Assembly: GCA_039621445.1 (NCBI GenBank)
Contig: CP154954.1
Span: 38,549,703-38,613,702, forward strand
Source of the DNA: Euglena gracilis
Lineage: Eukaryota
Reading direction: 5' to 3'
DNA length: 64,000 nt
The notes beneath the pieces are model-generated. The model saw only the letters and a program-made list of their open reading frames with translations, was not told where the DNA came from and ran no database searches. The position numbers and the translations under genes are program-made. Positions 2,877 to 27,664 of this stretch are shown piece by piece. Numbering within the stretch: the stretch's first letter is position 1; each line of letters starts with the position of its first letter.

Positions 2877-2940
2877 TCACAACAGGAGTTTTTGCGAAGA
2901 TGGTGGCCAGCCGCAATCTGGAGAGTTATACGGCACCCTC
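2877..2940 (-). CDS. GT77 gene candidate last exon
   Basis: (W)[26 protein letters not shown] pairing at +4/-6 completes the TGG codon. Confidence 0.5.
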
Positions 2941-5900
2941 CATTCATGCACACAAAGACAGAGGAGGAGGGAAGGGGAGGGGGAATTTTGTTCAAGTGCG
3001 GGGAGTAGCCATTACACGAGACAGATCCCCTCCTCGTCCAGCCACCACAACCATAGATTCACTTAGACCCAGTGGGGGCCATATTCTCCTGGCTCCCAAA
3101 CACTCCCACCATTTTTTTCAAAAACACACCCATGTATTACCCCCGGGGGGCCGGGGGGGGGGGTCCACCCACCCACCCACCCCAAACCTACCCAAAATCA
3201 GCCGAAACCCTTGAAAGGAAGAAACAAGAAGCTTATCTTCCCCAGACTGGCTGGGCCAGACATGGCACACCCCTGGGGGGGGGGGGGGTTCAGCAGCTCC
3301 AACCCACCCACGCACAGAAGACCCACCTACTCACCCCCTCCCAGGAGGAGGGGTCACGCAGGTGTTAAGTGAAGCCATGGACATAACCCAGCCTTCTTCT
3401 GCCGGGTCAGCTTGTTGGCCAGGCTCTTAAGCAGACTTTCATTTTAGACCCACAGGAAATCACCCCCACCTGCCAAGGGACTGGGGGGGGGGGGGGGCAA
3501 GAGAGGGAGTTGCAAAAAGGTCAAAAAACCAGACATTGAACTCATTTTCAGTCGTTCTGACCATACCCCCTGATTTCTGGGGCCCACAAATCTTCGGTTT
3601 TGCCACAAAAAAACCTAAAACAACCAATTTTCCATCATTTTGGCCTTTATTTTTCAATTTTACTTGTTTTGAAAAAAAATTGGCACCAGGTTATTTTTTG
3701 ACTGGACCCATTCCCAGGCCCCTGGAAGGCTCTTCCGCGGACACCCGGCGAAGACCAGGGGGGGGGGTCTTCGGAAATGCAAGCCCGGCCTTGATGCAGT
3801 TGTTGTGCAGCGACATCTGCCCCGGCAGCACCGGCCGCAGCCCCCGGTAGGCGAAGGAGAAGAAGCCCCGCCGCTGGATGGCCCCGGCGGCACGCGCTGG
3901 GCCGCGGGGGGTCCCTCCGGGCACCCCAGCCTCTGCCCCCCCCCCCTTCGCGACAGGGGGTCAGGGGCCCTCCGGTCCGTTGATCAGGGGTGATCACTCG
4001 CCACAGGGCAGCCATTGGACGGGGGGGGGGGCAAAGTCTGTGTCCAAGGGGCAGTTGATCCGTTGGGGCATCGACGTGAACTCCGCGTGGCAGTTCCTGC
4101 CCCCCCCCCGCCCGCTGCGAGGCTGGCTTCAACCCTCATTGCACCACAAGTTGGCAAACTGGCTTGCAATAACACAGACCGGAGGCCAACGCACTGGGGC
4201 GGGGGTCGCTGCCACATTCTGGTTTCATAGTTTCCCGGAGTATGGTTTCTCGGCTGTGTACCTCCCTCCCTCCCCCCTCTCCCCTCTCTTCTTTCTCAAC
4301 GTGCACATTTTGTATATGTGGGTTTTTTCAATTTGTGGAATACGTGGAATGGATATAAACGAAGGTATTGATGGCATACCTTCGAGGCCAGTGAGGACAT
4401 GCCCCGGCGACACCCTTCTGGGGGGGGGGGGGGCGGTCCCCAGACGGACAGACCAAAACTGTGCCTGTGGTGCGGCGGGCCCCCGGCCGTCCACCGCGCC
4501 ATTCGCCGCCGTCATCTGCGGCCAGAACCGGACCTCCAGCGACGCCGTGGACGCTGGGGCGGTGAAGTGGCACGTCGTCGCGTTGCGCCGGCCGTGGGGC
4601 GGCCCCCGCCCCCACCCACCCACCCACCCATGCACCCAGTGACCATGAGAGCCTTCAACACTGGTATACCGAGGATCTGAACAAAGCCATGTCATCCGTA
4701 GGCCGAAGATGCCGATGGCATGAATTTTTAAGCCAGTTCAACCTAGTGGTTGTATATACCGCTGGCCATACACAAAAAGTAGCAGACCCGCTTAGTCGAG
4801 CACCCTGGCATTACCCCGGTAACCCGGATGAAGGTGATGCCACCTTTCATGGAAGCCAAGAGGCTGATGAATATGCACGTCGATATGACGCAGCCGACGA
4901 TATGTTGGATTCTTTTCCCGTTTCATCGATTTTTCGTTCGCTGCCAGTCTCTCCTATAAGGGGGAGAAGGCGGCGAGGCCGCACACCTGGTCCCGGTCGC
5001 ATTACGCGATCGGAATCTCCTTCCCCCCTCTTCTTTCGCGAATGGGATTATTCCCATGACCCTGTATATAGCACGATAGTGCACAGACTGCGCAATGGCG
5101 AAGTTGTACATAATTATAAACCCCCCCCAAATATAAGAAACCCATTTCTTATATTTGGGTGTCGGCCGATCGGCCCAAAGGGTTTCTTATACTTGGGGGT
5201 TTCTTATATTTGGGTGTCGAAGGCCGGCCCCAAGGGTTTCTTATAAATGGAACTTTTTCTTCCTTCGGTTCCTTCATATAATTTCTTTCGTGTGACCACT
5301 GTGTGTAGGATTGTCCTCATATTTGACAGCCATTCAAACAGTGGGGAAGGGGGTCGTGAAACGGACAGGTGTTTCCAAAAAGCAGTTGCTTCTGAACTCT
5401 TGCTTTGCAAAGAAGCAATAGACTAGATTGGCTTCATCTTTGTGTTGATCGTGCCTTGAGATTTGCTGTGACCCATGGTGAAAATGAGGGGTTTATTATA
5501 TTTGGATTGGCGTCCAACAGCCCAGGGGTTTCTTATATTTGGGGGTTTCTCATATTTTGGTGTCGGCTGAAAATCAGCCAAAGGGTTTCTTATATTTGGG
5601 GGTTTCTTATAGTGAGGGGTTTCTTATATTTGGGGGGGGGTTTACCCTTTCCCTTTTACGGTTGGTTTACCGCGATGATGCGGGATATAAATATTGTATA
5701 CCCCGTGACTTGGTTGATGAAGTACTTTTGTGTTATCACAACCAAGGTCACCCTGGGGCCCCCAAACTTCTTTCTTTGGTGGGTCGCAGGTACTGTACAA
5801 CCCTGAAAGAAAACGATTTGCATTCGCGCTGCTTGCAAATTTCGCAACGGTTCCAAATTTGTCAAGCGCTAAAACCGCGCAGAGGTACCCCCCCCTGGTA

Positions 5901-8900
5901 CGCTGGACTGTTTCCCCGTACCCCCTGACATTTTTACGTCCCTCTGCATGGATTTTCTGGAATTAGAACCTTGCAAAGGATCAGACGGCAAAATTTACGA
6001 TTATGTTTTTGTTGTCGTCTGTAGGCTGAGTGGTTACATAGTAGCCATTCCATGCCAAAAGGCAGGGTTGACCGCGCAAATTTTAGCGCAGATATTTATG
6101 GAGAAGTGTATCTGCCTAATGGGCTTACCGAATGAGATTGTCAGTGATCAAGATCATTTGATCTCCTCTCGATTCTTCACAACCCTATGTGGTTTACTGG
6201 GAATCGAACAGCATTTTTCCATTATATTGCCCGAAGGGCAATGGCCGCGCCGAGGCAGCAGTGAAAGCTGTTGTAAATATGCTCCGTCTTCAACTGGCTG
6301 ATTCGCGCAAGGCCTGGGTCCAGGTTTTGCCATGGTCCCTCTTTTATATAAACACCCTACCGGGTTTAGTTTTACCCCACTCCCCATACAAAATTGTTTT
6401 CGGGTGAGATCCCCCAGCAATTGGTGATATACCATCAGAGAGACCAGCTCGAAGTAGCGTAACCTGTGAGACATGGTTCTCTGAGGTAGAGTCTCTCAGA
6501 ACTACTGTTCAGAAACGCATTACTGACATCCATTCTCAAAAGAGAAATAAATTTTTACAAGAATTCAAATCACCTGGCTATAGTGCTGGTGATCGCGTAT
6601 GGGTTCGGAATAGCCGAATCCGTATGCAGGCTTCCAAGCTAGACCCCCTCTGGCTCGGGCCCTGTGAAATTCTCGAACGCGTTGGTAACAGTGGCCGCTA
6701 TAGGGTGGCACTGCCCAACGGGATCGAGGATGTTCACATGGATGATTTCAAGCCATATCTTTCCCCGCCTAATGGCAAAGCACTACCGTGCCTTTATTTC
6801 AAGCCCCGTTCCAAGTTACCCGAAACGGATGATTTTGTGGTGGACAATATTCTCGATCACAAAATTGATCGAGGAGTACATTACTGGAAGGTCAGATGGA
6901 AAGGCTATGGGCCAGAGGAGGATACCTGGGAGCCAGCCTCCAGTTTTATTGGTTATGTCCAACAGGACTGGAAGCTGTGGAATAAAAGAACCCTACTTCC
7001 CCCACCCCCTCCGGGGGTGGGGGAAGTGGCCTGGGGGCGGGGGCCGGCGGGGGGCGGCGCAGAAGGCGCGGTTGTAGAGCGGCTGGTCATCGGTGGTCAC
7101 CCGGCCGGCGTCCACCTCCCCGGCACGGCCCCTTCCCTTCCCCCCCCCCCCGGATCCGAGGGGGAGGCGGGGGCCGGGGGGCGTTGGGGATGGGCCTCGG
7201 AGCGCAAGGGGTCGGCTGACAAAGGAGAGGGGGAGGGGCGGCAAACCGAAACGAAAAGGCACTGGCCATGCGAGGCGATGGATGACATCGTCAGGCCGAC
7301 GACACCTGGCGGTTGTGCTTCCACCACTTTTTTTTCCAATTACGCTTCCGTGTACGTTATTTTCGGTTTGGGTTGTTCTTTCATTGAGTCTCCTTGGGCC
7401 AGAAAAAAAGTGGGCATCTCCAGTACCAAGTTCCAAAAATGCGAAAACTGGTGTATTTTATCGAACCTTTTTGTTCATTTTGGCAGATCTGCCTCCTGGG
7501 TTTTGCTACACAAGAGGGTTGATGAAGGGTCAACACAGAATCCCACCCCGACCCTAGACAAAACGGTGCAGACACCCAGGGCCAGGGCGTTCCTAAATCA
7601 ACAACATCAGCTGAACTCCAAGGGGAAACGGTCGAAAAAACGGGTATTCCTCGGCAAAAGCAGTGCGACATTGGAAAAGAAATTGATTCCTAGCACCCTT
7701 GGGCTTAGGCGGCGCTAATTGCCCAACCAATTTTTGCGGGTTTTTTTTGACGTTTTTTGAGTGTTTTAAAACCCCCATAAAAGGGCACAAAAATTCAGGC
7801 TGAGAGGTGTGTGTGGCAGCTTTTGGCAAAAATTTTCGGACGTGGTTTTGCGCGGTTATCCGCCTAAACAATTTCCGACTGTGTGTGAATTGTGTGACTT
7901 GGGTGTGTATTAGAACTATTTGAAATGGGTTCAAAAACACTGACTTTGAACAGGTGTGAAACGGGGACCATGGTTTATGTTATTACCCCCCCCCCTATGT
8001 CCAATGACCGGTAACCTCTGTCCTCTGACCGGGGGGTTGGTCGTTGGACATAGGGTAGTGACCAAAAAGGTGTCCTCTGACCGGGGGGTGGTCGTTGGAC
8101 ATGGGGTCAAAAGAAAGTTGGTGGGTACCCGGGTCCCTACCCACCCAAAAATGCCCAAATTTTCCCTTCCGGCGCATTGCGCCGAAAATTTTGGGCAATT
8201 TTGACAAATTTTTGTCCAAAAAGTGTCAAAAATGGCACTTTGGCCAAATTTTTGGCCCAGCCTGTGCCCCAAATGGGTAAAGCAGCCGGGAAAAAACGGA
8301 CAACATGTGCGAATGCATTGACAAAAAAAATTACCACAAAAAAAAACATTTACCAACAGCGCTCCTCCATTCCGTCCTGCTGTGGTATATGGAGGGTTCC
8401 TGTGTACGGAAGAAGCTGGACTTCTGGGGACATCCCACCCAGCAGATTTAAAAGGAGAGGGGGGTCAGCACCAGGCTGTTTTTTACCAACCCCGGGTGGA
8501 GGGGGGGGGGTCCGGAGTGCCTTGGGGTGCCTGCCCAGGCAGGCACCCCCCCCGGGGGGGGATCGGCACCCGACTAAAAAAAAAACAGCCTGGTCGGCCC
8601 CAGGAGGGTCAGAAACAACTTAATGCTGAAAAAAATAGGGGGCAAACCCCCCACGCCAAATCCCACCCCCCCCAAAGTCCCCAGTCCCATCCGTCTCCTT
8701 GTGAGAAGGCCCGGCTGGGGCATCCAGTGCAGCGATGACGTAGTGAGGCAGCTGGAGCTTCTCCAGGTTGCAGGCGAAATTCAACACGAAATGGCCACAA
8801 CCCCCTGCCCCTCTCGGCCCACCCCCCAGGAGAGGAAAATGCCGGCCCATCACATTCAACATGGCACGGCACTCAGGTATTCGTTTAAATACCCATCTGT

Positions 8901-11900
8901 CTGTGGTGCAGGTCTGCCGGTAAACCCGCCCCCCCCCTAATAAAAATGCGGGGCCGCTACAAGCGCAGGGTCCAAATAAAAGCGCACCCCCCCCGTCGTC
9001 GAAGGCGGCGGTCCATTACAAGCACCCCCCCCCATTTTGACAGGATTTTTGAAGGAAATCAACAAAAATTGGGCAGGGAGGGTCAAAATAGAAGCGCCGC
9101 CCCCAGAGGTAGCAGTCCGCCATCAGCGCACCCACACTTCTATCAGGGAGGGGGGGTTTACAACAAAAAGCAACAAAAGTCTCAAAATAAACACGTCATT
9201 GGTCGTATCAAACCTAATGTGGAGGCGATGCTGGTGCCATGAATTCTCTTCCCGTTGTTCTGGGGGTTAAAAGGGAATTAAACACACAGGGTGATAGTGC
9301 TGATAGGGCTAATGGCGCTGAAAGGGTGATAGAAATGGGCAAATAAGAAAATGAAATCCAATTTGATAACTCTGCCGTGATGTGGACATGGACACTGCAG
9401 GGACATTGTTCCCAACCTTGAATCTAGGGATGACAATTCACATCATGGTTATCTGTGTGTTCGCACGCATGGGCGTCCGTGTGCGTGCGTGCGTGCGTGT
9501 GTGCGTAATGTGTCTGTGCATGGGCGTGTGTGTGCGCGCACGTGTGTGTTTGTGTGTGTATGTGCGTGTGCGCGCGTGTGTGCGCATGAATGCGTGTGTG
9601 TGGGCGTGTGCTGAATTTTACCCCCCCCCCCTATGTCCAATGACCGGTAACCTCTGTCCTCTGACCGGGGGGTTGGTCGTTGGACATAGGGTAGTGACCA
9701 AAAAGGTGTCCTCTGACCGGGGGGTGGTCGTTGGACATGGGGTCAAAAGAAAGTTGGTGGGTACCCGGGTCCCTACCCACCCAAAAATGCCCAAATTTTC
9801 CCTTCCGGCGCTTTGCGCCGAAAATTTTGGGCAATTTTGACAAATTTTTGTCCAAAAAGTGTCAAAAATGGCATTTTGGCCAAATTTTTGGCCAATTTTT
9901 GGGCAAAATTTTTCGCCCCGGCGCTTCATGCCGGGACCAAAAAATTGGCCAAACCTCCGAAAAGGTGTCCTCTGACCGGGGGGGTGGTCATTGGACATAG
10001 GGGGGTCGTTGGACATAGGGGGGGGGGTAACGGTATTTGAGAAACGAATGTATATACAAGCGTGCGCGGAGGTGTCAGACACCAGAGTTAAATGTTTAGG
10101 CAGATATCCATGTAGGATAAACTTGTACACCGATTACCACCTAAAAGTGAAAACAAAGAATTGCACACAGATCACCGTCCACCATAATACAAACAGTTGA
10201 CGGTTTGTAGGAAGGAATCCGCCTGTTGTGCGTGTTTCCGTGGTGAGTGTATGGCGACTTGGTGTAGGCAGGAATCCTTCCGGACTGAGTAAGAAACACG
10301 GTGGTATCCTAATACTGTTGCCCCACCCCTCCCCTGTGCCGATACTGGCATTAACCAGACGTCCGCGCCTGCTGGGGTCTCTGGAATGGGGGACAATAAC
10401 ACCATAACCAATGGTAGCTGGAGAACTCCCTGACGACGTGAGCAGGTGCCACCCGATGATATCCTGTCCTCGCCAACGCTCTTGGATAGAAAATGGTGCC
10501 TGTCTAAAACAGCTCAAAAACAAAACAAAAAAGCAGAATTAACTGATTTAAGAAACTCTGCAGTCGTAGCATCCATAATGAGCCAAAACCCACAAAGTCT
10601 TTACACCACCAACAATTCTGTGTTAGGCGGTGAACCGCCCGACACATCCCCACACATCAATTTAAAAACACCATTGAGAATGGCATGGGGTTGGGTGGGG
10701 ACCAAGAGACGACGTAGGCGGTTATCCGCTGAAAACAAAATGAAGAACACCCGCTCAGGAGGCCAACAGCTGACTTGTCACACTTGAGCACTGAGGCTTG
10801 GTCTACTTTTATGAGTTGGGATGGAAACAGGGTTTGCAGTAACACAACTAATGAGAGATGGAGGGGGGCATACCAGCTGTGAGGACAGAGAAGTCAGGTG
10901 GGAAACTGCCTGGATGCGTTAAGGGTGGGCAGAAAAAGAAAATGAGTTGGTTGACGATTGGGGGGGGGGGTGGAAGATGGAAATCGCCCTGGAAATGGCA
11001 TCTGCTGGTTTGACTGCAAAGTTTTTAAACTCTATTTACCCCCCCCCTATGTCCAATGACCGGTAACCTCTGTCCTCTGACCGGGGGGGGGGGTCGTTGG
11101 ACATAGGGTAGTGACCAAAAAGGTGTCCTCTGACCAGGGGGGTGGTCGTTGGACAGGGGGTCGGGAATAAAAAGTTTGCCGAAACCCCCCCCCAAACAGG
11201 TCAAAATTTTTCTTCCGGCGCTTCGCGCCCCCATTTCCAGCCCTGTCAACAAATATTTACTCAAATAGCAAACAAAACTGACATCCTTGGACGATGGGGC
11301 TGCGGGGTAGAGGACAAGGGCGGAAGAAAAGCCTTTCGGGGCTGGCAAACCTCCGGTTTTCACACACCTGCAAAAAAACATCAAACCTCCGAAAAGGTGT
11401 CCTCTGACCGGGGGGTGGTCGTTGGACGTAGGGGGGGGGGGGGTAGGAAACCCGTCGCAGACGTGAACTTTTGCAGACACGGAAACGGACGACAGATTTT
11501 GTTGCCAAGCTTGCAACTGAATGGTGTCTGGCATGTTGTGCAGAGTTTGAGGGTTGGAGGTTCATGGAAATCAGGGAGAGGAGATTGCCCAAGCAGGGTT
11601 TGACCAAACAAGGAGAGACAGGAAGCCTTTAAACTTGGGCACTCAGAGCAGGGGTGGTTTCCAAAAGGACTGGACACACTTGTGCTGAGGGTGGTTACAT
11701 GGATGGAAGCCAAATGCATCGGGTCAAACATCGACCCGGCGTTGGTTGAGAACAACAACCTTCTGGTGTGCCCCCCTTCCACGTGGTTTCTAACTGTGGA
11801 GACCACCGTTGCCTCCTCTGGAGGCATGCTGCCGGACCCGAAGGAAGAAGAGCCAGAAAAAAAGAGGTGTTTTGGGCATTTTGTCTGAAATTCAGCAAAA

Positions 11901-14900
11901 ACTGCAGCTTTCAAAAGAAAAATGCTGTAAAACTTTTGCAAAAAAAACAATTAACAAGGCCTTGAATTTTTCAGAACTTGGAGAACTCCTTCCGAAAGCC
12001 CCCAAAATTTTTTCGAATGCTGCCACCAGCTGCTGAAACAGTCCTTGATTCCCGCTGTCGTGCAGCCGCCAGTGCATCTGAAGACTTCATTGGGCAGTCT
12101 ATTACCGGGGTCGGTGTCGCTTCATTCCGGCGGTGCAGCCCCGCGTGCACCACCGCGCCGCGGTGGTGCACGCGGGGCTGCACCGCCGGAAAGCGGCGCT
12201 CCAGCAGTGGACACAACAGAGGCTTTTTTATTCGGTGGGCAAAAGGGTCATCACTGGTCATGTGCTCTCGGGGGAGGCAAGCAGGGAGGGGACCCAGGCT
12301 GAAAAAGCCTGCTCGCTGGCTGGACAGGTCCCCCGGGCACGCAGCACACGCCCCGGTTGGGGCACTGCCACACAGCTGATTTGGAGAGCCAAGAGGAGGC
12401 AGTCCCCCGAGGGGCGGGAAGGGCCCTTGCGCGGCGATCATCCACTCGAACGCCGCGATGCTGGCCGGCGACGCGGGCACGAAGAACAGCCCCGCGTTGA
12501 ACGTGTCGGCGGGGCGGGGCCCGGTCATCGCGGCGCGCGGCGCTGTCCCTGGTCGGGGGGGGGGGCTTGATGTAATGGCAAAGCTGTGAGCCAAATGGTG
12601 CCTTGCGCGGAGCCGGCCAACAGATCGGGTGCGTTTGAAACGAGGGCGGCGCCACCTCAGCCGTGGTCTGCTCGAGGGGCAGCGGGTGGCTGTACGGCAC
12701 ATCGGACGGGGCCAGGCCCCGGCCGACCCCTCCCTGGGCAGTAGCCGTGCCCCGGAACGCTGTTTTCACACAGAGGTTCCCTCTGCTTCGTGCAGGAGGA
12801 CCCTAAATTCTCATTTGCGGGTTTGCGGAGTCCTCCATGAGCTTCCCAATGTTTCATCCACCGAAAAAATTGTTCGGTTTGATCCCTTGGGCATTTTCCA
12901 ATATTTTTCCGTTCAGATGGTGAGAATTTTTTGTTGGCCATCCAATGGGATTTGGCTCAAGGCAACTCCAATCACGAACCATCACAAATCAGATTCCTCG
13001 GGATCCTCCAGGTTTTGTGTACCGGCATCCTTATCAACAAGGTATATCGCCCCCCCTCCTCCATCTTTGGCACATCGATTGTATTTGACCATTACTGTTT
13101 CACTTTGTTAAACCAGTCAATTTGCCAGAACATGCCATTTCTGGAGCTAAACATATCCACACAGAAATGTGGCAGAGGAGAGAAATTTGAGCATCTGAAA
13201 TGCAAACAATTGGGAGGGGTTCAATTTGGGGGGGGGGGCAATAACATAACTGGGGAGGGGTACCATCTTTTTGATCTTGGTCATTCTGGGACACCACCCC
13301 ACGAAAGAAAACTTTTTGCACCATCTTTGATGGCCAAAAACGCACATACTCATAACCATAATTGGCTGAATCAAACTCCTATGTTTTTTTAAACACTCCC
13401 AAAGAAGCCCCTTTTTCCTTCACTTTTGTTGAATGAGGGCTTCATTGAACCATATTCTGATGTTTGGTACATTTCTCAAGTTTTTGTGGAAATCCTGAGG
13501 AGTGTGATATCATGACTGTCGCCGCAGAAACCGAATTCCCTGGACAGGAAACTGTCCTCTGTTCGTTCTTGTCAGCTGTCCCATGACAAATTTGAAGCAA
13601 AATTGTGAACATTGTTTTGAAGCCTCTGATCAGGAAAATATGCAAAATTGCCCTTTCTGTTCTTTGGGGGATTTTTGTGCCGGCTGCGGTCAAAAATTTT
13701 CCTATGCTTTGGGCCAGGTTGAAGGTGCCGACCCTGCCGGTCGACCGGCCGACCCCCCCCCCCCAATTAGAATCCCCCCAGGGCCACTATTCTGAGGAAA
13801 ACCTGAGGGGGGCCTCTAATTGGGTACCCTTGCCGACTTGCCTGGAGACTGCAGATGTTGATTTCTACACTCCATTCGATATTTTCGCGTGGACAAAATG
13901 TTTTTCAAACTTAATTTCTCAATTTGGTGTCAGACAGCTTTGTTCAAACAGAGGCACAGGAGTTAAACTGGTCAGCAATAACAACCTTGAGATCCCTTCC
14001 TCCTGAAGAGTTTGAAAGCAAATATGTCCATGACCCAGGAGGAGGGGGTCACTTTCAACTTTCAAAAAAACCACTGAGTCACTCTTTGAACCCAGTCAGT
14101 TCCTATCAGGGATTTTTCCCCTTTAAAACCCAGGGTCTACCCCACCCCCCGTCTGGTTGACCCGCTGTCTGGGTTATCATCAGGGGTTTTCTTAAATCGG
14201 AGGGGACTCAACCTCCCAGCCAGCCAGCACCATTTTCTCCAGCCAGCACCTCCTGGGCTGTGGACCCCCCCCTGTGGATCTGTTGAAACATAGTTTGGGC
14301 CAGCCCGGAAACCTTTTTGAGGTGAACCCCAAACAAAAAAAAACCCTAACCCTAACCCTAACCCTGACCCTAACCCCAGCCCTAACCCTGATCTCCTCAA
14401 AAATGCCATTTTGGCCATTTTTGACCCCCTCTTCCCCCCCCCCCAAAAAACTCGAGAAGATGGTCAAAAATGGCCAAAATGGCACTTTTGTGTGGTTTTG
14501 GGTTCTCCCCTCCAAAATGAAAATGCTAATCTAGCTGATTTGGGCATTTTTTTGTCTGGAGTTTGGGTACAGTCCAGCTGCCAGCCGACCAGTCCGGGGG
14601 CAGACCGGGAAAGCCGACCCCCCCTCCTGGACCCCCCACCCTGGGCCAGGTGGGGGGGGGTCCAGCCAGCACTTTTTTCCAGCCGGCCCGCAGGGCCCCC
14701 GGGGGTCCTTCAGAAAACACCTCGTCATGTTTGAGGGACATGCTCGTAATCACACACAATAGTCGCCCCTCAGCGGACCCACAAGACCCCTGGGGAGCCC
14801 CACCCACCTCTGGGGGGGTCCACCCTTCAACCCCCCTATGTCGAACAGAAAAAAGCGGTAATATCTGTCCTCTGACCAGAGGGGGTTGTTAGATGTAGGT

Positions 14901-17900: not shown

Positions 17901-20900
17901 TTTGTGAGAAGGCCCGGCTGGGGCATCCAGTGCAGCGATGACGTAGTGAGGCAGCTGGAGCTTCTCCAGGTTGCAGGCGAAATTCAACACGAAATGGCCA
18001 CAGCCCCCTGCCCCTCTCGGCCCACCCCCCAGGAGAGGAAACTGCCGGCCCATCACATTGAACATGGCACGGCACTCAGGTATTCGTTTAAATACCCATC
18101 TGTCTGTGGTGCAGGTCTGCCGGTGAACCCGCCCCCCCTAAAAAAAAATGCGGGGCCGCTACAAGCGCAGGGTCCAAATAAAAGCGCACCCCCCCCCGTC
18201 GTCGAAGGCGGCGGTCCACTACAAGCACACCCCCCATTTTGACAGGATTTTTGAAGGAAATCAACAAAAATTGGGCAGGGAGGGTCAAAATAGAAGCGCC
18301 GCCCCCAGAGGTAGCAGTCCGCCATCAGCGCACCCACGCTTCTATCAGGGAGGGGGGTTTACAACCTCCCAACTTCCGCTCTGGCTGATTGGTGGCTGTT
18401 GCCGCTCAGTTTGGGGTGTGGGTGAGCCCTCAAAACACAGGCACAATTGGTTGGATGTGAGTTTGGGCATGTTTGGACCCACATAATCGCGCTAAGGAAG
18501 CGGACAAAAATAACACACAAAAAATGTGAGGAAAGTATTAAAAAATGGCTGTTTATTGGGAGAACTTATAGAAATCTTCCAAAAAATTTCGGAAATTTCA
18601 AAAAACTGCAGGGAATTGTGGGGAAATTGAACATTTTGGAGGGAATTGTGAAAGACTGGGATAAATGCAACATTGTGCAAGTGAAATGAAAACCTATTGA
18701 AAAAAATGAAAGCGAGGGAAAAAGTCACCAGACAAGGGGAAATACAAGAAAAAATCAATCCATTTTCCAAAAATTGTTTTCGCATTCTTACGTCATCCGC
18801 TGTGACATCCATCTGCCCTGCTTGTACACTGAAGCCAGAGGAAATACGAAAGAAGCCTGTGTGGTGAACAACATAAGCCAACAACTGCACAAGCTTTTTC
18901 AAAGACGCTTCTGGGGGGGGACAAGTCGCGAAGAAAAAGATGGCGGAGAAGGACAACAAAAAGCAACAAAAGTCTCAAAATAAACACGTCATTGGTCGTA
19001 TCAAACCTAATGTAGAGGCGATGCTGGTGCCCTGAATTCTCTTCCCGTTGTTCTGGGGGTTAAAAGGGAATTAAACACACAGGGTGATAGTGCTGATAGG
19101 GCTAATGGCGCTGAAAGGGTGATAGAAATGGGCAAATAAGAAAATGAAATCCAATTTGATAACTCTGCCGTGATGTGGACATGGACACTGCAGGGACATC
19201 GTTCCCAACCTTGAATCTAGAGATGACAATTCACATCATGGTTATCTGTGTGTGCGCACGCATGGGCGTCCGTGTGCGTGCGTGCGTGCGTGTGTGCGTA
19301 ATACGTGTCTGTGCATGGGTGTGTGTGTGCGCGCACGTGTGTGTTTGTGTGTGTATGTGCGTGCGCGCGCGTGTGTGCGCATGAATGCGTGCGTGTGGGC
19401 GTGTGCTGAATTTTATGTTGATCCTCCGCTGACTCCATTCTGCAGAGCCCATCCGCTTCCAGGCCGGAGGCTGGCCCCAGGTACCCGATGGTGGACGTCG
19501 TCAGCATGACCACCCCGTCCGGGCTGGCCCGCCGCCGCAGGAGGGCCCGCAGCTGGTCGTCACAGGAGCCGGGCTGCCCCGCCCCCCCCCCCACCCCCCA
19601 GTCAAAAGCCCGGCAATTCCGCCAGCACTCGACAGGCTGCGGCTTTGGGTGGCCCAACGTCAAGGCTCAACCCTGTCCCAATAACAGGGGTGTGGGGTCA
19701 CACCAGGTGGCGTGACCCCCACACCAGGTGGCGTGATCCCCAACACCAGGTGGCGTGACCCACCATTTGTTTGGCTCGTTTGAAGCCGCTGTGCCACTGG
19801 GCAGCCCTGCGGTCGGAGGCGGTGGACGGGCCCGAGGCGGGGAGGGCGTGGGCCCGAGCGACCTTGCGCGACCACTGCATCGGTCGCAGGGTCCGGGGGG
19901 GGGGGGGAGCGCTCTCCGCCCACGGAGGCCCCCCTCCAGCCACACCTCCAACCCCCCCTGCGACACATTGCGTTCGTCTGGGACGCATCGCCAGGGTCGT
20001 GTGTATGTGCAACACATGGGGAACCACCCCAGAAAAGCGACCCCACCCTCTCTGTCTCTCTGTGTGTCTGTGTTCCGTACCCGGAACCCCTGGGCGTCAT
20101 CTCTGCTGCCCGCGCGCAGTTGCCCGTCAGGATGGCGTCGGAGCTGCATCGCCGGCAGGCCCCTTCCCCCAGTGCGTCCGGACCCGCACCTCCCGGCCCA
20201 CATATGATGAAAGGCCGGGGCACTTGGATGAGGCTGAAACGAAGGGACCACTGTGTGGTGCGCGTCATATGACGCCTGTCCATGGGTGGCTAACACTCTC
20301 GGTACCCACCAATGTGCGGTGGGCACCTATTTTGAAACTATGGCCGAGCCATCTTGCGGAGTTACCAAGAGCAATCGTGCCAGCCGGAAATGGAAGAGCT
20401 CTGCTCACACCAAAAGCAACAATTGCACCAGCCTTGGAAAGGGTGCGGATGGCTGTGGTCTTTCTAAACGTCTCTGCGATTGTTTCTGTGTTTTTCTTGA
20501 CTTTGCAGTTTGGCACACACATGCGCGTGCGCATTGCTCGGGAGGTTGAACCGCGACTTCGGGAGCTGGGAGCGACTCATCAAATCTTTGAATGCGCCCA
20601 TGTCCATCCACTTAGCCATCAGCCGTGAAGTTTTGGGTCAAATTCATTTTTCTTGGATGCTGCAGAGCAGAGTTGGCACTCCACAAAAAGTGATATCCTG
20701 GCTGCTTGAACCCCGGCAGGTGCTTTGCCAAGGCCATGGGTCGAGGGGAGCGCCTGGGCGGCTTCGCAGCAGGATCCGGGGCAGCGAGTCCGCCGAGCCG
20801 TCGAAGTTGAGGCGCGCCACCCGTGGCTTGAGGCACGGGGCGTCCCGCCCGCCCTGCCGGCAGACCGCGGCGTGCCACGGCGCCTCCCACGGCGTGCCGA

Positions 20901-23521
20901 ACGCCGGCGGCAGGGAGGCCGGCCCGCCCCCAGCCGGCCCGCCCTGGCGGGGGCCTCCCTGACCACGGGGTACGTTACGGAGGCGTTGCTGGCTGGCCCC
21001 TGGCTTGGGATTGGCTGGGTTGAAAGGCTTGTCAAAGTTGGCCTTGCTTTTGCATTAGAGAGGGGTTTCAATAACAGCCCCAAAAAATTGGGACCCTGGG
21101 CGAAAATTTTGGCTGTTCGAAATTATGTTGGCAGAGACATGGAAAAAACATTTTCTCCAACGAAAGAAAACGTCATGCAACACAGGTCCCCCCAAGAATG
21201 ACACAATAAGAAAAAAACCAAAATCAGTTTTCACGAAATCCACAAAAATACCTCAAGCGGAAAGGAAGCTGTCAGTGGTCCAGTCTTCTAATTCCCCATT
21301 GGATGGTCCAGCCTGTGCCATTTGGGAGGGGATGTGCCCAAAACTGGCGATTTCACAGTTTTGCTGATCGGGGGGGGGGGGACTTCAGTTTGGCGCTTTG
21401 CGCCGTCCCTTAAACCGAAAATCGGTTACAAAATTGGTTATATTTGGAGGGGATTACCCCTTGGCAATCGCCCCCTCAGCTGCCCGTATGTCAACCAGTC
21501 CACCCAGAGATTTTGCTGATCCTTTGTAGCACGGGTGGGTGGGGGATAAGAACACCCAAATCCCAGAGAATTTGATTTTTCAGGGTGGGTAACCCCAAAA
21601 AAACACAACACCGGTTTCTTGGACCCCTTCCTTGTTGATACCCTGTTTCCATAAAAAGAAACTGTGTTTTGAAGATTTCCAAAAAAAATCGCCAGGAGGG
21701 CATTCGGAGTTTGGATTTCGACCAACAACTCCTTGATTTACGATCCACACCAAAATTGTCAAAAAAAAACCGAATAAAATGAGGCAGCAGGCTGAGACTG
21801 TTTGCATGCCATACATGCAGAAAGGGATGGCTGAAATAGAAATTTAGCCAGACCCCCCCCCAGAAAACTGTCATCAGACAGGTCTTACAATAGGGACCCT
21901 GACACACCCCGGAAGGGGGGGGGGTGGGTGAGGCGGCGGGAGAAAAGGGCGCCTGTGAGTTGGGGGCCAGGCTGTAGGACAGGGAGGTGGAAGGCTGGAA
22001 CAGCAGCCGCATCGAGGCGTCCCGCGTCTCCTTGGGCCCAGCGAGGCCTTGCCGGGGGGGGGGGGGGGGGCCCCCCGTTGGCCAGTCAGCCAGTGCCCCC
22101 ATTCACAACACGGAGAGGCAGGCGCTGGCCGGAAAGGGACCGCCGGGGGAGGCTTGCCAGTGGCAGTGGCAGCCCCCGCTCAGCCCCCGCGTTGTGTGTC
22201 GCGTTGTCACATTGAGGACTCTGGTGCAGGGCTGGGTTGGGCCTCATTGGGACGTTTGATCGAAACGCAACTGCCTCCCCTCCCCCACCCAGGGATGTAT
22301 GGAAAGCCTTGAGGGGGGGGGGTTCGACCCCCCCCCTCTCCCGCCTCGAAACTGAAGGGGGGCCGGGTTTCGGTTTTGTGGCCGGGCAATGGTCCAGATA
22401 CCACGCCAAAATTGGCCAAAAATGGCTGACTTTTCGGCATCAAACAATTCGAAGCCATATGCAACCATTAGAAGCACATGCAAATGGGGGACAGCGTTGG
22501 GGGAGTCCCCCCCCCCACGCTGGGTCCGGGTCTGACCGGGGGCTGGCCAGCACGGCGCTGATGTCCACCACGTGCCGCAGGCCGGTGCTGACTGCCGCCG
22601 CCATGAGCCACGCGTCCGCGGCGGGGGGGCAGGCCTCGCCCCGGAGGTTGGGGAGCCGGGGGGAAGGGGGGGGGGGTTTCCCGGCATAACTCTCCTATAC
22701 CGACCCGGCCCAGCAGCTTGGCAGCCCGGCCCATCCCAGCCTGGCCTGGCACAGAACAATCGATCCTTTTGCCCCCAAAAAGGCCGTGAACGGCAGACTG
22801 GTACAGTCGGAAGCCTGCAGAGCTGTTTTGGGGGGCAGATTGGCCAAACCTCAGGCTGTCCTTTCTCACAGCGCAGGGCCGGCGGGGGCCCACCCGGCAT
22901 GGCGGGCCGACCCGGGGAAGCAAGGCCGGGGCCGGGGGCCGGGGCGGGGGCCTGGGCCGGGGTGGCGCCGGGAAACGGGGGGACGGGGACGTCCGCGAGG
23001 GGCACCACCTCCCCGGCGAAGGTGTTCCACAGCCACAGGTACGGGTCCCGCGGGGCCGGCGGCAGCCAACGATGTGCCAGCAGCCAACGGTGGGTGGTTG
23101 TGGCAAACGCCAAAACCACCCAATAAACGCACAGATGCACCTTCCTTAGGTGTTGTGGGGGCTCATTTTGTATGATCCTGCCTGGAGTTGCTATTTTTAT
23201 TCAACTGAGTTGGTAACTATTTTTTGATGAGGTCAAATTCTTTGATATGACCTCAACTTGCGCACCAAACAATACCAGCAACGGCACCAATAAAAGGTCA
23301 AAAAATTGGGGGTTTTCAAAACTTTTTGTTACAAAATAAATGCATGCATACATACACATATAAACAATACATACATAATAATGTTAACTTTTGGGAGCAC
23401 ACAAATTGCACAACCTTCTAAAAAGAGAAGTGGTTTTTGTCTTCTCTGTACAGAAAATTGTGGCTGCCTCACACAAAGAGACCTCTGTTTCATACTCATG
23501 TGTGTGGGTGTGTTGTGTTGT

Positions 23522-23559
<38 letters not shown>

Positions 23560-26500
23560 TGTGTAGTCACGTACAGTGCTTGGATGCACATAGGTGGGTT
23601 GCCAAGCGGAGCACCATGGCAGGGGCTGAAGCCGAGCGACAATTTGCTGTCGTCAGACCGTGGCCCCGACACCGCCAGCCAGCCCGGCGCGTTGTGGCCG
23701 CGGATCCTCCGGAACGCCCGGAAGGGCAGCGCCACCCGGGGCTGGCGCTGGCGAGAGGGGCCCTGGCAGTAGGGGGGGGGGGGGACCCTCCCAGGCAGGG
23801 GACGGGTGAGTGGGCCGTGTTGGCGTCCTTGATTCCCCCTGTCGTGCAGCCGCCAGTGCATCTGAAGACTTCTTTGGGCAGTCTATTCCCGGGGTCGGTG
23901 TCGCTTCATTCCGGCGGTGCAGCCCCGCGTGCACCACCGCGCCGCGGTGGTGCACGCGGGGCTGCACCGCCGGAAAGTGGCGATCCAGCAGTGGACACTT
24001 GAGACTTTTTATTTGGTGGATTGTGCCGTCCCGGATTCCGTCGGCCCACCTTCTGACTCTGGCCATGGCGTGGGATGGGGGGGGGGCAGCACAAACCCGG
24101 CAAAGTGTACCAACAGGAAGCCCTCCTTGGGCCCTTCCAAAAGCGCTCAACATCTCCAGGGCGTTGTGCAACTGCCGCCTCCGCCAGGGCCCCGTTCCGG
24201 GGAGTGAGCCGCACTGCACGCATGGGCAGGCGGCCACACTGTGGGGGGGGGGGGGGGGGGGCCCCCCGGCCCAATCCAGCGTGTGTGGCCCAATCCAGTG
24301 TGGTTTACGGTGGCGGCTTATACGGATAACCCTCCCCCTTTCGGGAAACTGCGTCAGCAAAATGGAGGCGAAGATGGCGTTTCCAGGAGGTTCTTAGACT
24401 GCGGGAAAAAATCGACAGTGTTGAAGTAATTAGTAATTAGAAGTAAACAGAATTTCCGCCCAAGAGAAGCAATGTTTTTCATAAAAATAACATGTCAATG
24501 TTTCTGGAAACTTGGCGAGCAAAACGCTGAAGGTTTGGTTTGCACAAGGGGACAGTGGCCCAAACGAAGTTCGGGCAGTTTCCCGGAGTTCATGACGATT
24601 TCCAGTTCCGAAATTATACTTAAGAGCCACGAATAGAGGAGACTTGGGAGAAGGGAGGTTCCGCCTCTGCGCTTTCTGCCCCCCCCCCCTAGGACCTCGG
24701 GGAGGACTCCCGGGGACGGGCCCCTGGCCCAGAGCCCTGCAGGGCCGCCAGGGATCGCAGGAGGGCGACAGTGCCTGCCCGGTTCGGCCCACACGCAGTC
24801 TGGGCCGCCTGCACCACGGCGTTGAAGTAGACGCGGTGGTCCACTGTGGCCTGCGGCAGCGGCTGACTGGCCTCACCTGACCACACCGTGTGGGCCCCCC
24901 TCCCTGAGAGGGCACTTTTCCCGGGGGGGGGGGATTGATATCGGGGAAATTGCGGAAATTGCGGGAAAATTGCGGGAATTGCAATTTTGGGAATTACTGC
25001 CCTTCTGCTGGAGGGCACTTGGAGAAATTTCCCAAATTTGGTCATTTGCAACATGGATGTAAGTTTTGAGCCGCTGTCAACGTTTTCCCAACAAAAAGGT
25101 CAAAAACATAATTTTAGTAAATTTGGGAACATGCTGGTGCTTGGAAATATGGATTTCTTGGGTGAAAAATCCAAAAAAAAAGGCAAGTAAAATTGCTGAA
25201 AACTTTGGCATCAGTAAAATCTGGTCCAGGATGCGAAACTTTTCTTACTCGAAATTATTCCCATCAGAAATTGGGGGGAAACCTAAAAAGGGTCCAGAAG
25301 TTGCCAGTTTTTGTCAAAATTTGTGAAGTTTGGCAAATTTTGCAAAATTGTAACAAAAGAAGAAGAAAAGCCCCTGGGTTCCCTTGTGAACCGTTCAAGG
25401 GAGGGCCGGAACTCATTTCGCCTTCCGTTTCAGGTTCACGTGGAAAAACTGCGGAAAGGAAAAAGTGCGAAAAATTGTGGAAAAACTGCGGGAAAATGCG
25501 GGAAACTGCGGGAAATTGCGGGAAATTGCGGGAATTGCATTCAGCCTTGGGTTTTTTTTCATGTTTTGAGTGAGGTTGGTGGGATGACCCTTGAGGTGGG
25601 ATGACCCTGGGGGAGGGGGGCGTGGGTGGGTAGGCTCTGAAAAAAAGATGAATGGGTGAGTTCGGTTGGACCCCAGTGCACCTCACCTCCGGGGGGGGGG
25701 GGGGTCCAACGGCCGACACCCACCTCCATTCTCAAAACCCCCGAAGGTGGTGGGGCACCCCAGGAGTGCATACCCTCCTCCATGGCACATGGGCCCCAAC
25801 TGCTCATCGGGGACAACTTTAGGGGGGGGGGGGGGGGCAGCATGCTGACTCCGATATCCTGGGAAACAGGGGGCATTGTTGGCCCCAATGGACAACGGGT
25901 CAAAACTATGGGGAGGGAGACCAGTTGTGTCCAACAAGCAGGCTAGGGAGTGGGGACCAAAAGATGGGGGTGCAAATTAGCGAGGGGGCAGAGGGTGGGC
26001 AGGTCAGGCTACAGAGCTGTGTGTGGCCGCACCTGAGACCTGAGACCTGGCGATTCTTGTTCCTTCGTTTCCTGGGGGCCGTGTCCCCTCTTTTGAGTTC
26101 CCACACCGTGGGGGTGTGTCCAGCAAACCCCGCCGGGAGCTGGCTGAGTGATGATATCTGGCACACGGTGAGTTTCTGGGAGGTGCAGCCCCATAGCCCC
26201 ATAGCCCGCCGCTGGCCGACACACAGAGGCAGGGCAGCCGCTGACGGCGTGCCCAGGCCCCATCCTCCCGCCGGGAAACGAGATGCACGACGGTGACCGT
26301 GTCGCCGGGAGGGCGTCTCTCGGAACTGGCCCTGTGCTGGGCGGTTCTGGAATGGCCCACGAATGGCCTTCCTGCTCACCCACGTTTGCCTACTCGTTTC
26401 GGGTTCTGTATCTTGCAATTGCCCTCTTTCTGGGGCTGATTTCAGCGCACAAGAATGAAAATTTTCGAGGAAACAGACCAACAAACCTCCCAGCTTCGGG

Positions 26501-26881: not shown

Positions 26882-26970
<89 letters not shown>

Positions 26971-27018
26971 TGTGTGTGTGCGTGTGTTGTGTGCATGTGT
27001 GTGTGCGTGCGTGCGTGC

Positions 27019-27051
<33 letters not shown>

Positions 27052-27664
27052 TTGGTGTGTGTGTAGGGGGGGGGGTGGATGGGTGTGTGTGCATGTGTGG
27101 GGGGGCCTCACCCAACCCCATCACCCCCACAAGCTCAGGCCATGGGGGTGTCCCCCCAGTCCCCCGCCTGCCCCGCCCCCCAGCGGCCGTCCTCAGGGAT
27201 ACCCTGGGGGGCAGTGGTTGCTGTCCAGGTGGCTGGGGCATCGGAGACAGGCAGCCCCGTCGGTGGGAGGAGAGGTTGATGGGAGGCCTGGTGCCCCCTT
27301 CCACCAGGATAGGGGTGAGGGGACAGGGGGCAGCCACCCCCACCCACCACCATGGGGTGTCCAGGATCCCGTGCCGCCCTGTTGAACGGGGATTGAAACT
27401 GTCATTTATATTGTTTGTTGTTATTATCATGTGCGCAACGGTCAACGCACCGACAATCGACCTGTGTGCTGATTACTTTTGAAAGTAATTACTAATTGTT
27501 CCTTGCCCAACGGAGGCTGTTGAGAAAGAGCTGTCAAGGGCTTCCCAGCGCCAGTCTGTATGGGGCTTGCCTGGACCACAACGAGGGGCGTCCGTGTCGT
27601 CGGTCTCCCCGCGCGTGGCAGAGAGCAGCGCCAGCAGCCCCGCCACCCACAGGCACCATGGCAT
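2877..27664 (-). CDS. Multi-exon gene (~25 exons, ~710 aa): GT77-family nucleotide-diphospho-sugar transferase, RAY1 (beta-arabinofuranosyltransferase)-like, with N-terminal signal peptide
   Basis: Spliced translation gives GT77/RAY1-type motifs in the expected order: [16 protein letters not shown] (signal); [83 protein letters not shown] (DxD); [42 protein letters not shown]. About 19 of 24 junctions keep the frame under one fixed intron-end pairing geometry. Some boundaries are approximate. Confidence 0.85.
3382..3426 (-). CDS. GT77 gene exon 24
   Basis: [14 protein letters not shown](W), the K..RQ...GLW end motif; CTG at -8. Confidence 0.75.
3791..3894 (-). CDS. GT77 gene exon 23 (5' boundary approximate)
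   Basis: [35 protein letters not shown] (HNN motif). Confidence 0.8.
4483..4598 (-). CDS. GT77 gene exon 22 (3' boundary approximate)
   Basis: [38 protein letters not shown]. Confidence 0.75.
4638..6990 (+). mobile_element. Decayed Ty3/Gypsy chromovirus pol fragment (RNase H C-term, HHCC zinc finger, integrase core, GPY/F, chromodomain); no LTRs seen
   Basis: [95 protein letters not shown]. Frameshifts near 5890 and 6225, stop at 6405, MITE insertion at 5119-5642. Confidence 0.93.
5119..5642. mobile_element. MITE with TA target duplication inside the chromovirus pol
   Basis: TIR AACCCCCCCCAAATATAAGAAACCC / GGGTTTCTTATATTTGGGGGGGGGTT; TA at 5117-8 and 5643-4; removal restores HNYTLSLLR in frame. 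Confidence 0.9.
7046..7124 (-). CDS. GT77 gene exon 21
   Basis: [26 protein letters not shown] (DQ..YN motif). Confidence 0.85.
8256..9620 (+). repeat. Segmental copy of 17478-19415 (minus 592 bp), including GT77 exon 15
   Basis: Near-identical sequence; joins at an AAATTTTTGG microhomology (left) and TTA (right). Confidence 0.92.
8716..8792 (-). pseudogene. Duplicated pseudo-exon (identical copy of exon 17919-17995)
   Basis: 77 nt identical to exon 15; lies in a phase-0 intron where inclusion would shift the frame; upstream CTG reads TTG. Confidence 0.8.
9621..10027. mobile_element. MITE family A, complete copy (relatives: 7986-8255 left half, 11039-11443, diverged ~14830-15260)
   Basis: TA-C(n)TATGTCCAA ... 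TTGGACATAG(n)-TA, with internal repeats TCCTCTGACCGGGGGG. Confidence 0.88.
11039..11443. mobile_element. MITE family A copy
   Basis: Same termini and TA flanks as 9621-10027. Confidence 0.85.
12041..12238. repeat. ~195-bp interspersed repeat with a perfect 33-bp-arm palindrome (second copy 23825-24019)
   Basis: TTCCGGCGGTGCAGCCCCGCGTGCACCACCGCG-C-reverse complement, in both copies. Confidence 0.9.
12427..12540 (-). CDS. GT77 gene exon 20
   Basis: [38 protein letters not shown] (N.G.FF motif). Confidence 0.85.
12650..12707 (-). CDS. GT77 gene exon 19
   Basis: [19 protein letters not shown]; completes the AQSD motif. Confidence 0.75.
14343..14390. repeat. Interstitial telomere-like (CCCTAA)n; similar at 40258-40316
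   Basis: About 8 degenerate CCCTAA units. Confidence 0.8.
15560..15616 (-). CDS. GT77 gene exon 18
   Basis: [19 protein letters not shown]; next intron has a perfect CAGGCCCCG/CGGGGCCTG stem. Confidence 0.85.
16062..16107 (-). CDS. GT77 gene exon 17 (DxD motif)
   Basis: [16 protein letters not shown]. Confidence 0.85.
16359..16800. mobile_element. MITE (TA-flanked) with GTGACAATT subterminal repeats
   Basis: TA-TCCGCCCCTCCCCGGGCAATTG ... CAATTGCCCAGGGGGAGGCGGG-TA. Confidence 0.75.
16929..17082 (-). CDS. GT77 gene exon 16
   Basis: [51 protein letters not shown]. Confidence 0.85.
17919..17995 (-). CDS. GT77 gene exon 15
   Basis: [26 protein letters not shown]; upstream CTG-TGGCC junction in frame with exon 14. 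Confidence 0.85.
19477..19557 (-). CDS. GT77 gene exon 14 (start of catalytic domain)
   Basis: [26 protein letters not shown]. Confidence 0.8.
19813..19881 (-). CDS. GT77 gene exon 13 (Pro-rich linker)
   Basis: [23 protein letters not shown]; frame fixed by the flanking junctions. Confidence 0.6.
20112..20150 (-). CDS. GT77 gene exon 12
   Basis: [16 protein letters not shown] at -8 and CAG at +4. Confidence 0.65.
20760..20925 (-). CDS. GT77 gene exon 11
   Basis: [55 protein letters not shown]; high GC3; CAG/CTG flanks. Confidence 0.75.
22001..22033 (-). CDS. GT77 gene exon 10
   Basis: [11 protein letters not shown]; next intron pairs CAGCC/GGCTG. Confidence 0.6.
22131..22175 (-). CDS. GT77 gene exon 9
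   Basis: [14 protein letters not shown]; 3' boundary uncertain by about 1 nt. Confidence 0.6.
22549..22650 (-). CDS. GT77 gene exon 8
   Basis: [34 protein letters not shown]; next intron has a perfect CAGCCCCCG/CGGGGGCTG stem. Confidence 0.75.
22970..23079 (-). CDS. GT77 gene exon 7 (3' boundary uncertain)
   Basis: [36 protein letters not shown]; resembles the RAY1 N-terminal W.WN...PPF segment as I recall it. Confidence 0.65.
23666..23752 (-). CDS. GT77 gene exon 6
   Basis: [29 protein letters not shown]; frame-consistent on both sides. Confidence 0.65.
23825..24019. repeat. Second copy of the palindrome-containing repeat
   Basis: Aligns with 12041-12238. Confidence 0.9.
24138..24221 (-). 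CDS. GT77 gene exon 5
   Basis: [28 protein letters not shown]; next intron pairs GGGCCC/GGGCCC. Confidence 0.7.
24730..24851 (-). CDS. GT77 gene exon 4
   Basis: [40 protein letters not shown]; both flanks nonconventional and in frame. Confidence 0.75.
26218..26331 (-). CDS. GT77 gene exon 3
   Basis: [38 protein letters not shown]; next intron ends pair as CAGCGGC/GCCGCTG. Confidence 0.7.
26780..26864 (-). CDS. GT77 gene exon 2
   Basis: [29 protein letters not shown]; preceded by CTG at -8..-6; in frame with exon 1. Confidence 0.7.
26883..27063. repeat. (GT)n microsatellite
   Basis: Directly visible. Confidence 0.97.
27577..27664 (-). CDS. GT77 gene exon 1 (start codon, signal peptide)
   Basis: ATG at 27664, [29 protein letters not shown]; following intron begins GTC-CAG. 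Confidence 0.75.

Follow-up and report, generated by a model that had tools for sequence, protein, structure and literature searches.

In euglenid nuclear genes, nonconventional introns make up 57-72% of all introns (PMC12501133, PMC11170887), with 71.8% in Euglena agilis (PMC12501133), so a euglenid gene composed mostly of such introns is to be expected. Milanowski et al. (2016; PMC4770533) reported that complementarity at +4, +5, +6 and -8, -7, -6 is kept rather than sequence, that these pairing positions are the most conserved element among 55 nonconventional introns and that every downstream exon in that set begins with a purine. Knock-in mutagenesis by Nomura et al. (2025; PMC12501133) added that a 5' spacer of 3 nucleotides (nt) and a 3' spacer of 5-6 nt are required: 5-6 nt are tolerated on the 3' side, splicing is weaker at +2 or -1 and almost nothing is left at +3, splicing is lost when one position of CAG or CTG is changed, and pairing beyond the motif is needed. 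Their code, 5'-N3CDG-/-CH'GN5-6 followed by a purine (R), covers 61.2% of the nonconventional introns of E. agilis, and 84.4% of all introns of that species are slidable. For Euglena gracilis, terminal pairing has been described genome-wide, zero pairing energy being found for 35.35% of GT-AG introns as against about 3% of nonconventional introns (PMC11170887). Nonconventional introns are further described as leaving as full-length circles, as being removed after conventional introns and as having an origin like that of miniature inverted-repeat transposable elements (MITEs) (review PMC11282704, citing J Mol Biol 2021 and PMC6221363). Here we set against this background a spliced gene on the minus strand of a 64,000-nt stretch of E. 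gracilis DNA (contig CP154954.1 of assembly GCA_039621445.1, positions 38,549,703 to 38,613,702; the window). Its at least 19 introns, from 24729 to 3880 in window positions, are borne out by joints in RNA, and it is very probably an ordinary transcribed nuclear euglenid gene in which all tested introns belong to the known Euglena nonconventional class.

Nothing different in kind separates these introns from the euglenid nonconventional introns described in 2014 and 2016 by Milanowski et al. (PMC3935182, PMC4770533) and in 2025 by Nomura et al. (PMC12501133): both lack GT-AG, mostly carry CAG/CTG at +4,5,6/-8,-7,-6, have 3-nt and 5-nt spacers, are followed by an exon that starts with a purine and have slidable junctions. 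This class of intron, its pairing at +4/-6 and the rule of 3- and 5-6-nt spacers have all been published, and the locus shows a known feature of Euglena genomes. Noncanonical introns of hemistasiid diplonemids (PMC12621601) likewise lack GT-AG and have ends rich in G+C that extensive pairing draws together; they belong to a separate lineage, however, and a fixed-register CAG/CTG motif is not reported in the text consulted. Introners and MITE-like introns (PMC11282704) share the terminal inverted repeats and the junction repeats that resemble target-site duplications, but in other lineages the spliceosome takes introners out at GT-AG sites that they create, whereas in this gene the signal appears to be the inverted repeat itself.

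Junctions were compared with RNA over positions 4400-24399 (20 kilobases), which takes in all five of the 'non-CAG' introns and three of the four CAG introns quoted by an earlier sequence-only reading of the window. The run search gave 19 contig sets guessed to be RNA, with 7-12% of the words, one set with 66%, and four raw RNA-seq runs that carry the same species label. One contig each from runs X1 (2111 nt), X2 (1936 nt) and X5 (1732 nt) was used together with raw reads of X21, a run recorded as RNA, of which about 5% of the reads were taken; 15 of 150 joints, 24 of 625 loose ends and 12 of 15 indels were covered. Fourteen joints were present both in the contigs of X1, X2 and X5 and in X21 raw reads (4-18 reads each; Table 1), and one reading frame is kept through them across introns of 59 to 5314 nt. 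Two more introns are removed at joints found by placing the consensus letters of loose ends in the window (24179>24730 and 3879>4489). The remaining three joints, none of which is among the 15 listed, were obtained from piece ends and contig-length arithmetic. For 4595>7049, the piece left of 7117 is 69 nt long and 41 letters separate the variant at 4555 from its piece end, positions 4597-4640 being masked as repeat; for 17083>17920, the exon piece 16929-17083 (155 nt) has 0 mismatches in three contigs; and for 17995>19477, the exons 17920-17995 and 19477-19558 sum to 158 nt, equal to the coordinates in the X5 contig record.

The borders place these introns in the nonconventional class, as the sequence-only reading had proposed. 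GT..AG or AT..AC occurs in 0 of the 19 introns in any permitted slide, GC..AG in one, and none of the joints falls at a nearby GT-AG site; 17 of the 19 can slide by 1-4 nt through short direct repeats. With each junction at its best permitted slide, the downstream exon begins with a purine in 18 of 19 cases (the 19th begins with G at the slide that places CAG at +4), intron position +1 is a purine in 17, position -1 is a pyrimidine in 17 and the upstream exon ends in a pyrimidine in 16; these are the preferences described in PMC4770533. As a separate observation, the slide 24728-24179 of intron 24729-24180 reads GC..AG, yet the perfect N3-CAG/CTG-N5 signature is present, which makes it a candidate for what the literature calls 'hybrid' or intermediate introns.

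Pairing between the two ends was measured as the length of the contiguous helix counted from +4/-6, with Watson-Crick and G:U pairs, at the best permitted slide of each of the 19 introns and with 17919-17084 as the corrected junction; mismatched end pairs used as controls were allowed all slide combinations and so had more freedom than the true pairs. Helices of at least 3 pairs occur in 15 of 19 introns, of at least 4 in 14 and of at least 5 in 12. True partners form helices of 5.53 pairs on average, as against 2.98 for 342 mismatched 5'/3' end pairs, 31.9% of which reach at least 4 pairs. When partners were shuffled within the gene (derangements), 0 of 20,000 shuffles came up to the true pairs in summed helix length or in the number of helices of at least 4. 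A grid of offsets peaks at +4/-6 (14 of 19 introns with a helix of at least 4), the runners-up being its own sub-helices and slide equivalents, and among arbitrary (start, end) pairs in 3 kilobases of the gene only 0.6% show at least 4 Watson-Crick pairs at +4/-6, or 2.4% with G:U. Given this partner specificity, the absence of any equalling shuffle and the peak in register, the end pairing at +4/-6 is real and far beyond chance. The positions of the junctions in RNA, the complementarity of the ends, the specificity for the partner and the register are all shown by these data. Thus the register named by the sequence-only reading stands, and so does its expectation that true partners would pair better than shuffled ones; of the 24 introns that it proposed in 2877..27664 it gave about 19 as pairing +4 with -6, and among the 19 introns compared here such pairing holds for the 15 with at least 3 pairs and fails for the other four.

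Table 1 Introns of the gene and associated features, in window positions (joints in plus-strand coordinates)
Feature	Position	Strand	Length (nt)	5' end	3' end	Next exon base	Junction evidence	Helix (base pairs, bp) and remarks
Intron	24180..24729	-	550	GGC CAGGG	CCCTG GCGGA	G	loose end 24179 placed at 24730; 4 slides	5 bp at +4/-6
Intron	23750..24128	-	379	AAG GAGGG	CCCTC TCGCC	A	joint 23748>24128, 3 contigs + 7 raw reads	5 bp
Intron	23052..23637	-	586	GCT CGGC	GCCG GCCCC	G	joint 23049>23636	4 bp
Intron	22623..22957	-	335	GCC CAGGCC	GGCCTG CCCCCCC	G	joint 22619>22955 (both=3)	6 bp at +4/-8
Intron	22165..22548	-	384	GGC CAGCCCCCG	CGGGGGCTG CCACT	G	joint 22163>22548	9 bp
Intron	22034..22130	-	97	GGC CAGCG	CGCTG GGCCC	A	joint 22033>22131	5 bp, present in minimum-energy fold
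Intron	20988..21973	-	986	AGC CTGGCCCC	GGGGCCAG CCAGC	A	joint 20986>21973	8 bp; swapped middle pair (CTG/CAG)
Intron	20906..20964	-	59	GGT CAGGGAGGCC	GGCCTCCCTG CCGCC	G	joint 20903>20963	10 bp, present in minimum-energy fold
Intron	20151..20759	-	609	GCC CAGGC	GCCTG CCGGC	G	joint 20149>20759	5 bp
Intron	19882..20095	-	214	GCC CAGGG	CCCTG CGACC	G	joint 19880>20095	5 bp
Intron	19559..19811	-	253				joint 19558>19812 (both=3)	deviant; CAG/CTG spacers sum to 6 (2+4 or 3+3)
Intron	17996..19476	-	1481	GGC CAGCCTCC	GGGGGCTG TGGCC	A	summed exon length; no slide	8 bp including G:U
Intron	17084..17919	-	836	AGC CGGGC	GCCCG CCC	G	exon piece 16929-17083 + length arithmetic	deviant; spacers 3+3
Intron	16096..16928	-	833	GCC CAG	GTG GATCC	A	joint 16095>16929 (both=0); no slide	
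Intron	15617..16061	-	445	GGA GAGGG	CCCTT CCCGC	G	joint 15615>16061	5 bp; G:U at +4/-6
Intron	12708..15559	-	2852	GCG CAGGCCCCG	CGGGGCCTG GCCCC	G	joint 12706>15559	9 bp
Intron	7119..12432	-	5314	GCG CAA..	..GTG CCGGG	G	joint 7117>12432, 3 contigs + 15 raw reads	
Intron	4596..7048	-	2453	GCC GGCCCCCGCCCCCA	TGGGGGCGGGGGCC GCCCC	A	indirect (69-nt piece, 41-letter distance); 5 slides	
Intron	3880..4488	-	609	GGC CGG	CCG GGGCC	A	loose end 4489 placed at 3854-3879	3 bp
Putative intron (sequence-only reading)	24852..26217	-		GGC CAGCGGC	GCCGCTG CCGCA	G	outside the RNA-compared stretch	fits published code by its sequence ends
Unused exon copy	8717..8792	-	76					76/76 nt identical to exon 17995-17920; inside intron 12432-7119
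Run of 11 C	12555..12565	-	11					in exon 12706-12432; open reading frame changes frame here

Pairing is a less reliable guide when the junctions themselves are to be placed. Nine introns had been quoted from the sequence with their ends: two are exact (15559-12708 and 16061-15617), one (19476-17996) is consistent by summed exon length only, one lies outside the compared stretch and five were wrong by 1 to 11 nt. For 22548-22176 the donor is correct, but the acceptor is 22165, 11 nt on, in the second of two tandem CGGGGGCTG copies, the first having been taken. The intron given as 12426-7125 is 12432-7119 in RNA, 6 nt further out on each side, and 24137-23753 is 24128-23750, where the pairing is GAGGG/CCCTC and not GGGCCC/GGGCCC. 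Indirect evidence replaces 7045-4599 by 7048-4596, the 69-nt piece and the 41 letters fitting 4595>7049 and not 4598>7046, and 17918-17083, 1 nt off, becomes 17919-17084, where the helix leaves the +4/-6 register. Four of the five introns that had been presented as carrying other complementary pairs at the same register were thus misplaced. The reason is that at least 4 Watson-Crick pairs occur in 0.6% of arbitrary pairs and that both ends can be moved by several codons, so some helix is usually found. With five of the eight testable examples misplaced, pairing and frame restoration are insufficient for placing junctions from sequence alone.

The published code N3-CDG/CH'G-N5-6, followed by R, fits 11 of the 19 introns (8 CAG/CTG, 1 CTG/CAG and 2 CGG/CCG), a share comparable to the 61.2% of E. 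agilis, just as the 17 slidable introns of 19 compare with 84.4% there (PMC12501133). Because the code is found in only 61.2% of nonconventional introns, those that do not fit may still belong to the class, and the introns of this gene that break the code lie within the 38.8% beyond it. The ruler proposed by the sequence-only reading, with 3 free nt at the 5' end and 5 at the 3' end, describes the usual and published spacing, but four introns deviate and +3/-5 can pair in 10 of 19 (counted with 17918-17083 for 17919-17084). It is established knowledge rather than a new inference, because PMC4770533 (2016) and PMC12501133 (2025) had published the pairing and spacer rules. From the +3/-5 pairing and from the minimum-energy folds of the two short introns, which pair through the spacers into the exons, it follows that the tails are not delimited by the end of pairing.

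Several observations weigh against so uniform an account. Eight of the 19 introns lie outside the published code, +4/-6 pairing of at least 3 is absent in four, and the 3+5 spacing is broken in four. In 22957-22623 the 3' spacer is 7 nt instead of 5-6 (3+7); the spacers of 19811-19559, which at +4/-6 offers only AGGG/UCCU, and of 17919-17084, which is unpaired there in all 4 slides, sum to 6, and those of 7048-4596 also do so if its outermost C:G pair forms. Intron 24128-23750 has G:C at +4/-6, outside the CDG/CH'G code. Two more introns have a mismatch at +6/-8: 16928-16096, where the helix picks up again further in, and 12432-7119, in which C:G and A:U are followed by a mismatch and then by a long imperfect helix. 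Folded with their flanks, the 59-nt and 97-nt introns reach energies no better than those of shuffles (z = -1.03 and -0.44); in both, the position of the terminal helix alone is informative. On the side of the transcripts, 5 of the 19 junctions are indirect, X1, X2 and X5 are RNA by guess and X21 alone is on record as RNA, and a run of 11 C breaks the reading frame of this allele. The code-breaking introns are the only part of the locus without a full explanation. Their features include a G:C or G:U closing pair, 3+7 spacing and, with a helix of the form C[AG]G/C[CT]G, a 3+3 or 2+4 spacing that recurs in up to three introns. That the eight are more than noise, and stand for additional distinct registers of one machinery or for a second activity that removes introns, we consider unlikely.

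As to mechanism, we infer helix formation in vivo, with the helix guiding the cut. The ends of every intron would pair with one another in the pre-mRNA, in a helix that usually starts with C:G at +4/-6, most often as CAG/CTG. A putative excision activity, probably non-spliceosomal, would make its 5' cut 3 nt ahead of the helix and its 3' cut 5 nt beyond it, before a purine; the exons would then be joined and the intron would leave as a circle, as in the literature, from which the spacer requirement, the circular product and the lack of spliceosome involvement are all taken. A likeness is offered by the bulge-helix-bulge introns of archaea and of tRNA genes, which are cut by the splicing endonuclease at sites set by RNA structure, with two 3-nt bulges around a 4-bp helix, and whose products can be circular. 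There too, RNA structure around the junctions sets the cuts rather than a long consensus; the geometry differs from that of the +4/-6 helix, and no such motif was seen, although no search aimed at it was made. To our knowledge, no enzyme is known for Euglena introns.

The sequence-only reading went further and took the introns to be defined by geometry rather than by sequence, which for this gene is overstated. In its pure form, this would mean that any helix closing at +4/-6 suffices, that CAG/CTG is a relic and that a ruler sets the free tails at 3 nt (5') and 5 nt (3'). The letters at the register do vary in RNA-verified introns, which pair GAGGG/CCCTC (24128-23750), GAGGG/CCCTT with G:U (16061-15617) and CTG/CAG (21973-20988), to which GGC.../...GCC in 7048-4596 can be added by an indirect junction; a helix of at least 4 with G:U arises at the register by chance in only 2.4% of arbitrary pairs; and it is complementarity rather than sequence that PMC4770533 describes as maintained. 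Yet the composition is far from free, with C:G 13, G:C 3, G:U 1, A:U 1 and C/C 1 at +4/-6 (n = 19), A:U at +5/-7 in 12 of 19 and G:C at +6/-8 in 15 of 19 (the last two counted with 17918-17083 for 17919-17084). Pairing at +3/-5 would be possible in ten introns without shifting the cut, four introns break the 3+5 sum, and in 12432-7119 the cut lies 3 and 5 nt from a 2-bp CA/UG step before the mismatch, not beside a perfect 8-bp helix 6 nt inward. No splicing was obtained in knock-in tests when the middle pair was exchanged for a complementary one other than that of CTG/CAG (PMC12501133). Recognition by geometry alone is therefore improbable here.

We give considerably less credence still to the ordinary U2 or U12 spliceosome acting on highly degenerate splice sites, with the end pairing incidental. 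One intron slides to GC..AG (24728-24179), and tunicate non-GT-AG introns are reportedly spliceosomal (PMC13326754); however, the other 18 introns have no GT-AG or AT-AC ends in any slide, the pairing is partner-specific in one fixed register, and GT-AG introns of E. gracilis are reported to lack terminal pairing (PMC11170887). Least credible of all is that the joints arise by template switching of reverse transcriptase at short direct repeats, or that they come from a copy without introns at another place in the genome. Direct repeats of 1-4 nt do lie at 17 of the 19 junctions and the intron ends form hairpins, both of which favour template switching, and there are five exonic positions at which the contigs differ from the window. 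Against both, the same 14 joints recur in four runs from four studies, all of these keep one reading frame over introns of 59 to 5314 nt, and at those five positions X21 reads hold the window's letter as well as the other. Excision of nonconventional introns with paired ends from an ordinary nuclear transcript is the reading that we retain.

The largest intron, 12432-7119 (5.3 kilobases), holds a copy of the gene's own 17468-19415, with an internal gap and 94-98% identity (8246-9620): by blastn, 8246-9164 matches 17468-18365 at 93.8% and 9160-9620 matches 18953-19415 at 97.8%. An exon has been carried along unaltered within it (Table 1); half of each neighbouring intron is present beside the exon copy, neither with its partner end, and the CTG on the acceptor side is now TTG. 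The copy is used in none of the 15 joints listed, and an unused exon copy with orphan half-sites supports the need for both intron ends. Several introns of the gene have repeat families in common. A repeat of 198 nt, 94% identical, is common to two of them (12041-12238 and 23825-24019); its 67-nt core also matches in reverse orientation at 98.5%, indicating an element with an internal palindrome that is possibly MITE-like.

Joined, the exons encode a recognisably enzyme-like sequence: one long frame stays open for about 470 codons, between 24850 and the C run at 12565-12555, and a second open frame continues to 3694. The frame before the run holds IDSDVV..., and the frame after it holds DTFNAGLFF... 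and DDQPLYN; a stop follows in the next exon when the run has 11 C, and 10 C would leave the frame open. The allele may therefore not encode the whole enzyme. The run could be a homopolymer assembly error, a pseudogene allele or a site of slippage; an indel at the run is not among the 12 of 15 indels covered. The spliced translation shows three motif blocks in order, of which DDQPLYN is the last, and it may resemble the PF03407/GT77 domain, with its D-x-D type metal-binding motif and downstream conserved blocks. A 41-amino-acid exon piece (12555-12433) matches positions 108-130 of the PF03407 (Nucleotid_trans) profile at E=0.11; its 12.9 bits fall short of the gathering cut-off of 22. No PF03407 match was obtained with the other 12 exon pieces, each submitted singly, nor at E<=0.1 among 136 stop-free minus-strand open reading frames of at least 45 amino acids (of 200 listed, low-complexity and flanking frames omitted). 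The same 41-amino-acid piece had 0 matches among 1.84 billion representatives, and the 51-amino-acid exon 17082-16930, compared with longer proteins, gave seven candidates, none at E<=0.001, and no usable match in the protein atlas. With the searches otherwise empty, the protein family comes down to one weak Pfam match. GT77 identity is weakly supported, and the gene probably encodes a glycosyltransferase of the nucleotide-diphospho-sugar transferase type.

The transcript data show some further features. The five exonic positions at which the X1, X2 and X5 contigs differ from the window are 4555, 7092, 12475, 15598 and 23007; X21 raw reads hold both letters at each of them (for example, 16/24 at 4555 and 8/14 at 12475), which shows expression of two alleles or of near-identical copies. 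Over intronic 7735-11736 and 16406-17072, contig word depth rises to about 3700 (X1), as against 10-50 over much of the remaining gene; these parts are probably repeats with transcripts from other genomic places. At 19577-19599, 22053-22070 and 24243-24263, long G or C stretches draw hundreds of poly-G or poly-C reads from X21, and a joint 22070>24243 with 543 X21 reads was dismissed as a poly-G low-complexity artefact. Such a false joint is a trap for automatic junction calling. Loose-end strings of other contigs at 22924 and 22131 have no match in the window and are taken to be transcripts of other loci. Rule-based intron scanning of the 5' and 3' parts beyond the RNA-compared stretch gave far too many candidates to help, and no model is proposed for them. 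Elsewhere in the window, two Rfam tRNA matches stand head to head, 60 nt apart, at 57996-58067 (plus strand, 48.3 bits) and 58129-58185 (minus strand, 39.7 bits), the latter spanning model positions 8-63 only.

As a discovery, the locus matters little. Its value lies in the lesson that it holds for placing junctions, in its exceptions to the code and in the orphan half-sites within its largest intron. For the euglenid nonconventional class it supplies RNA-verified natural exceptions to the published code, and if the code-breaking introns do mark further registers, the published knock-in assay could draw on this gene for a ready set of natural introns to test.

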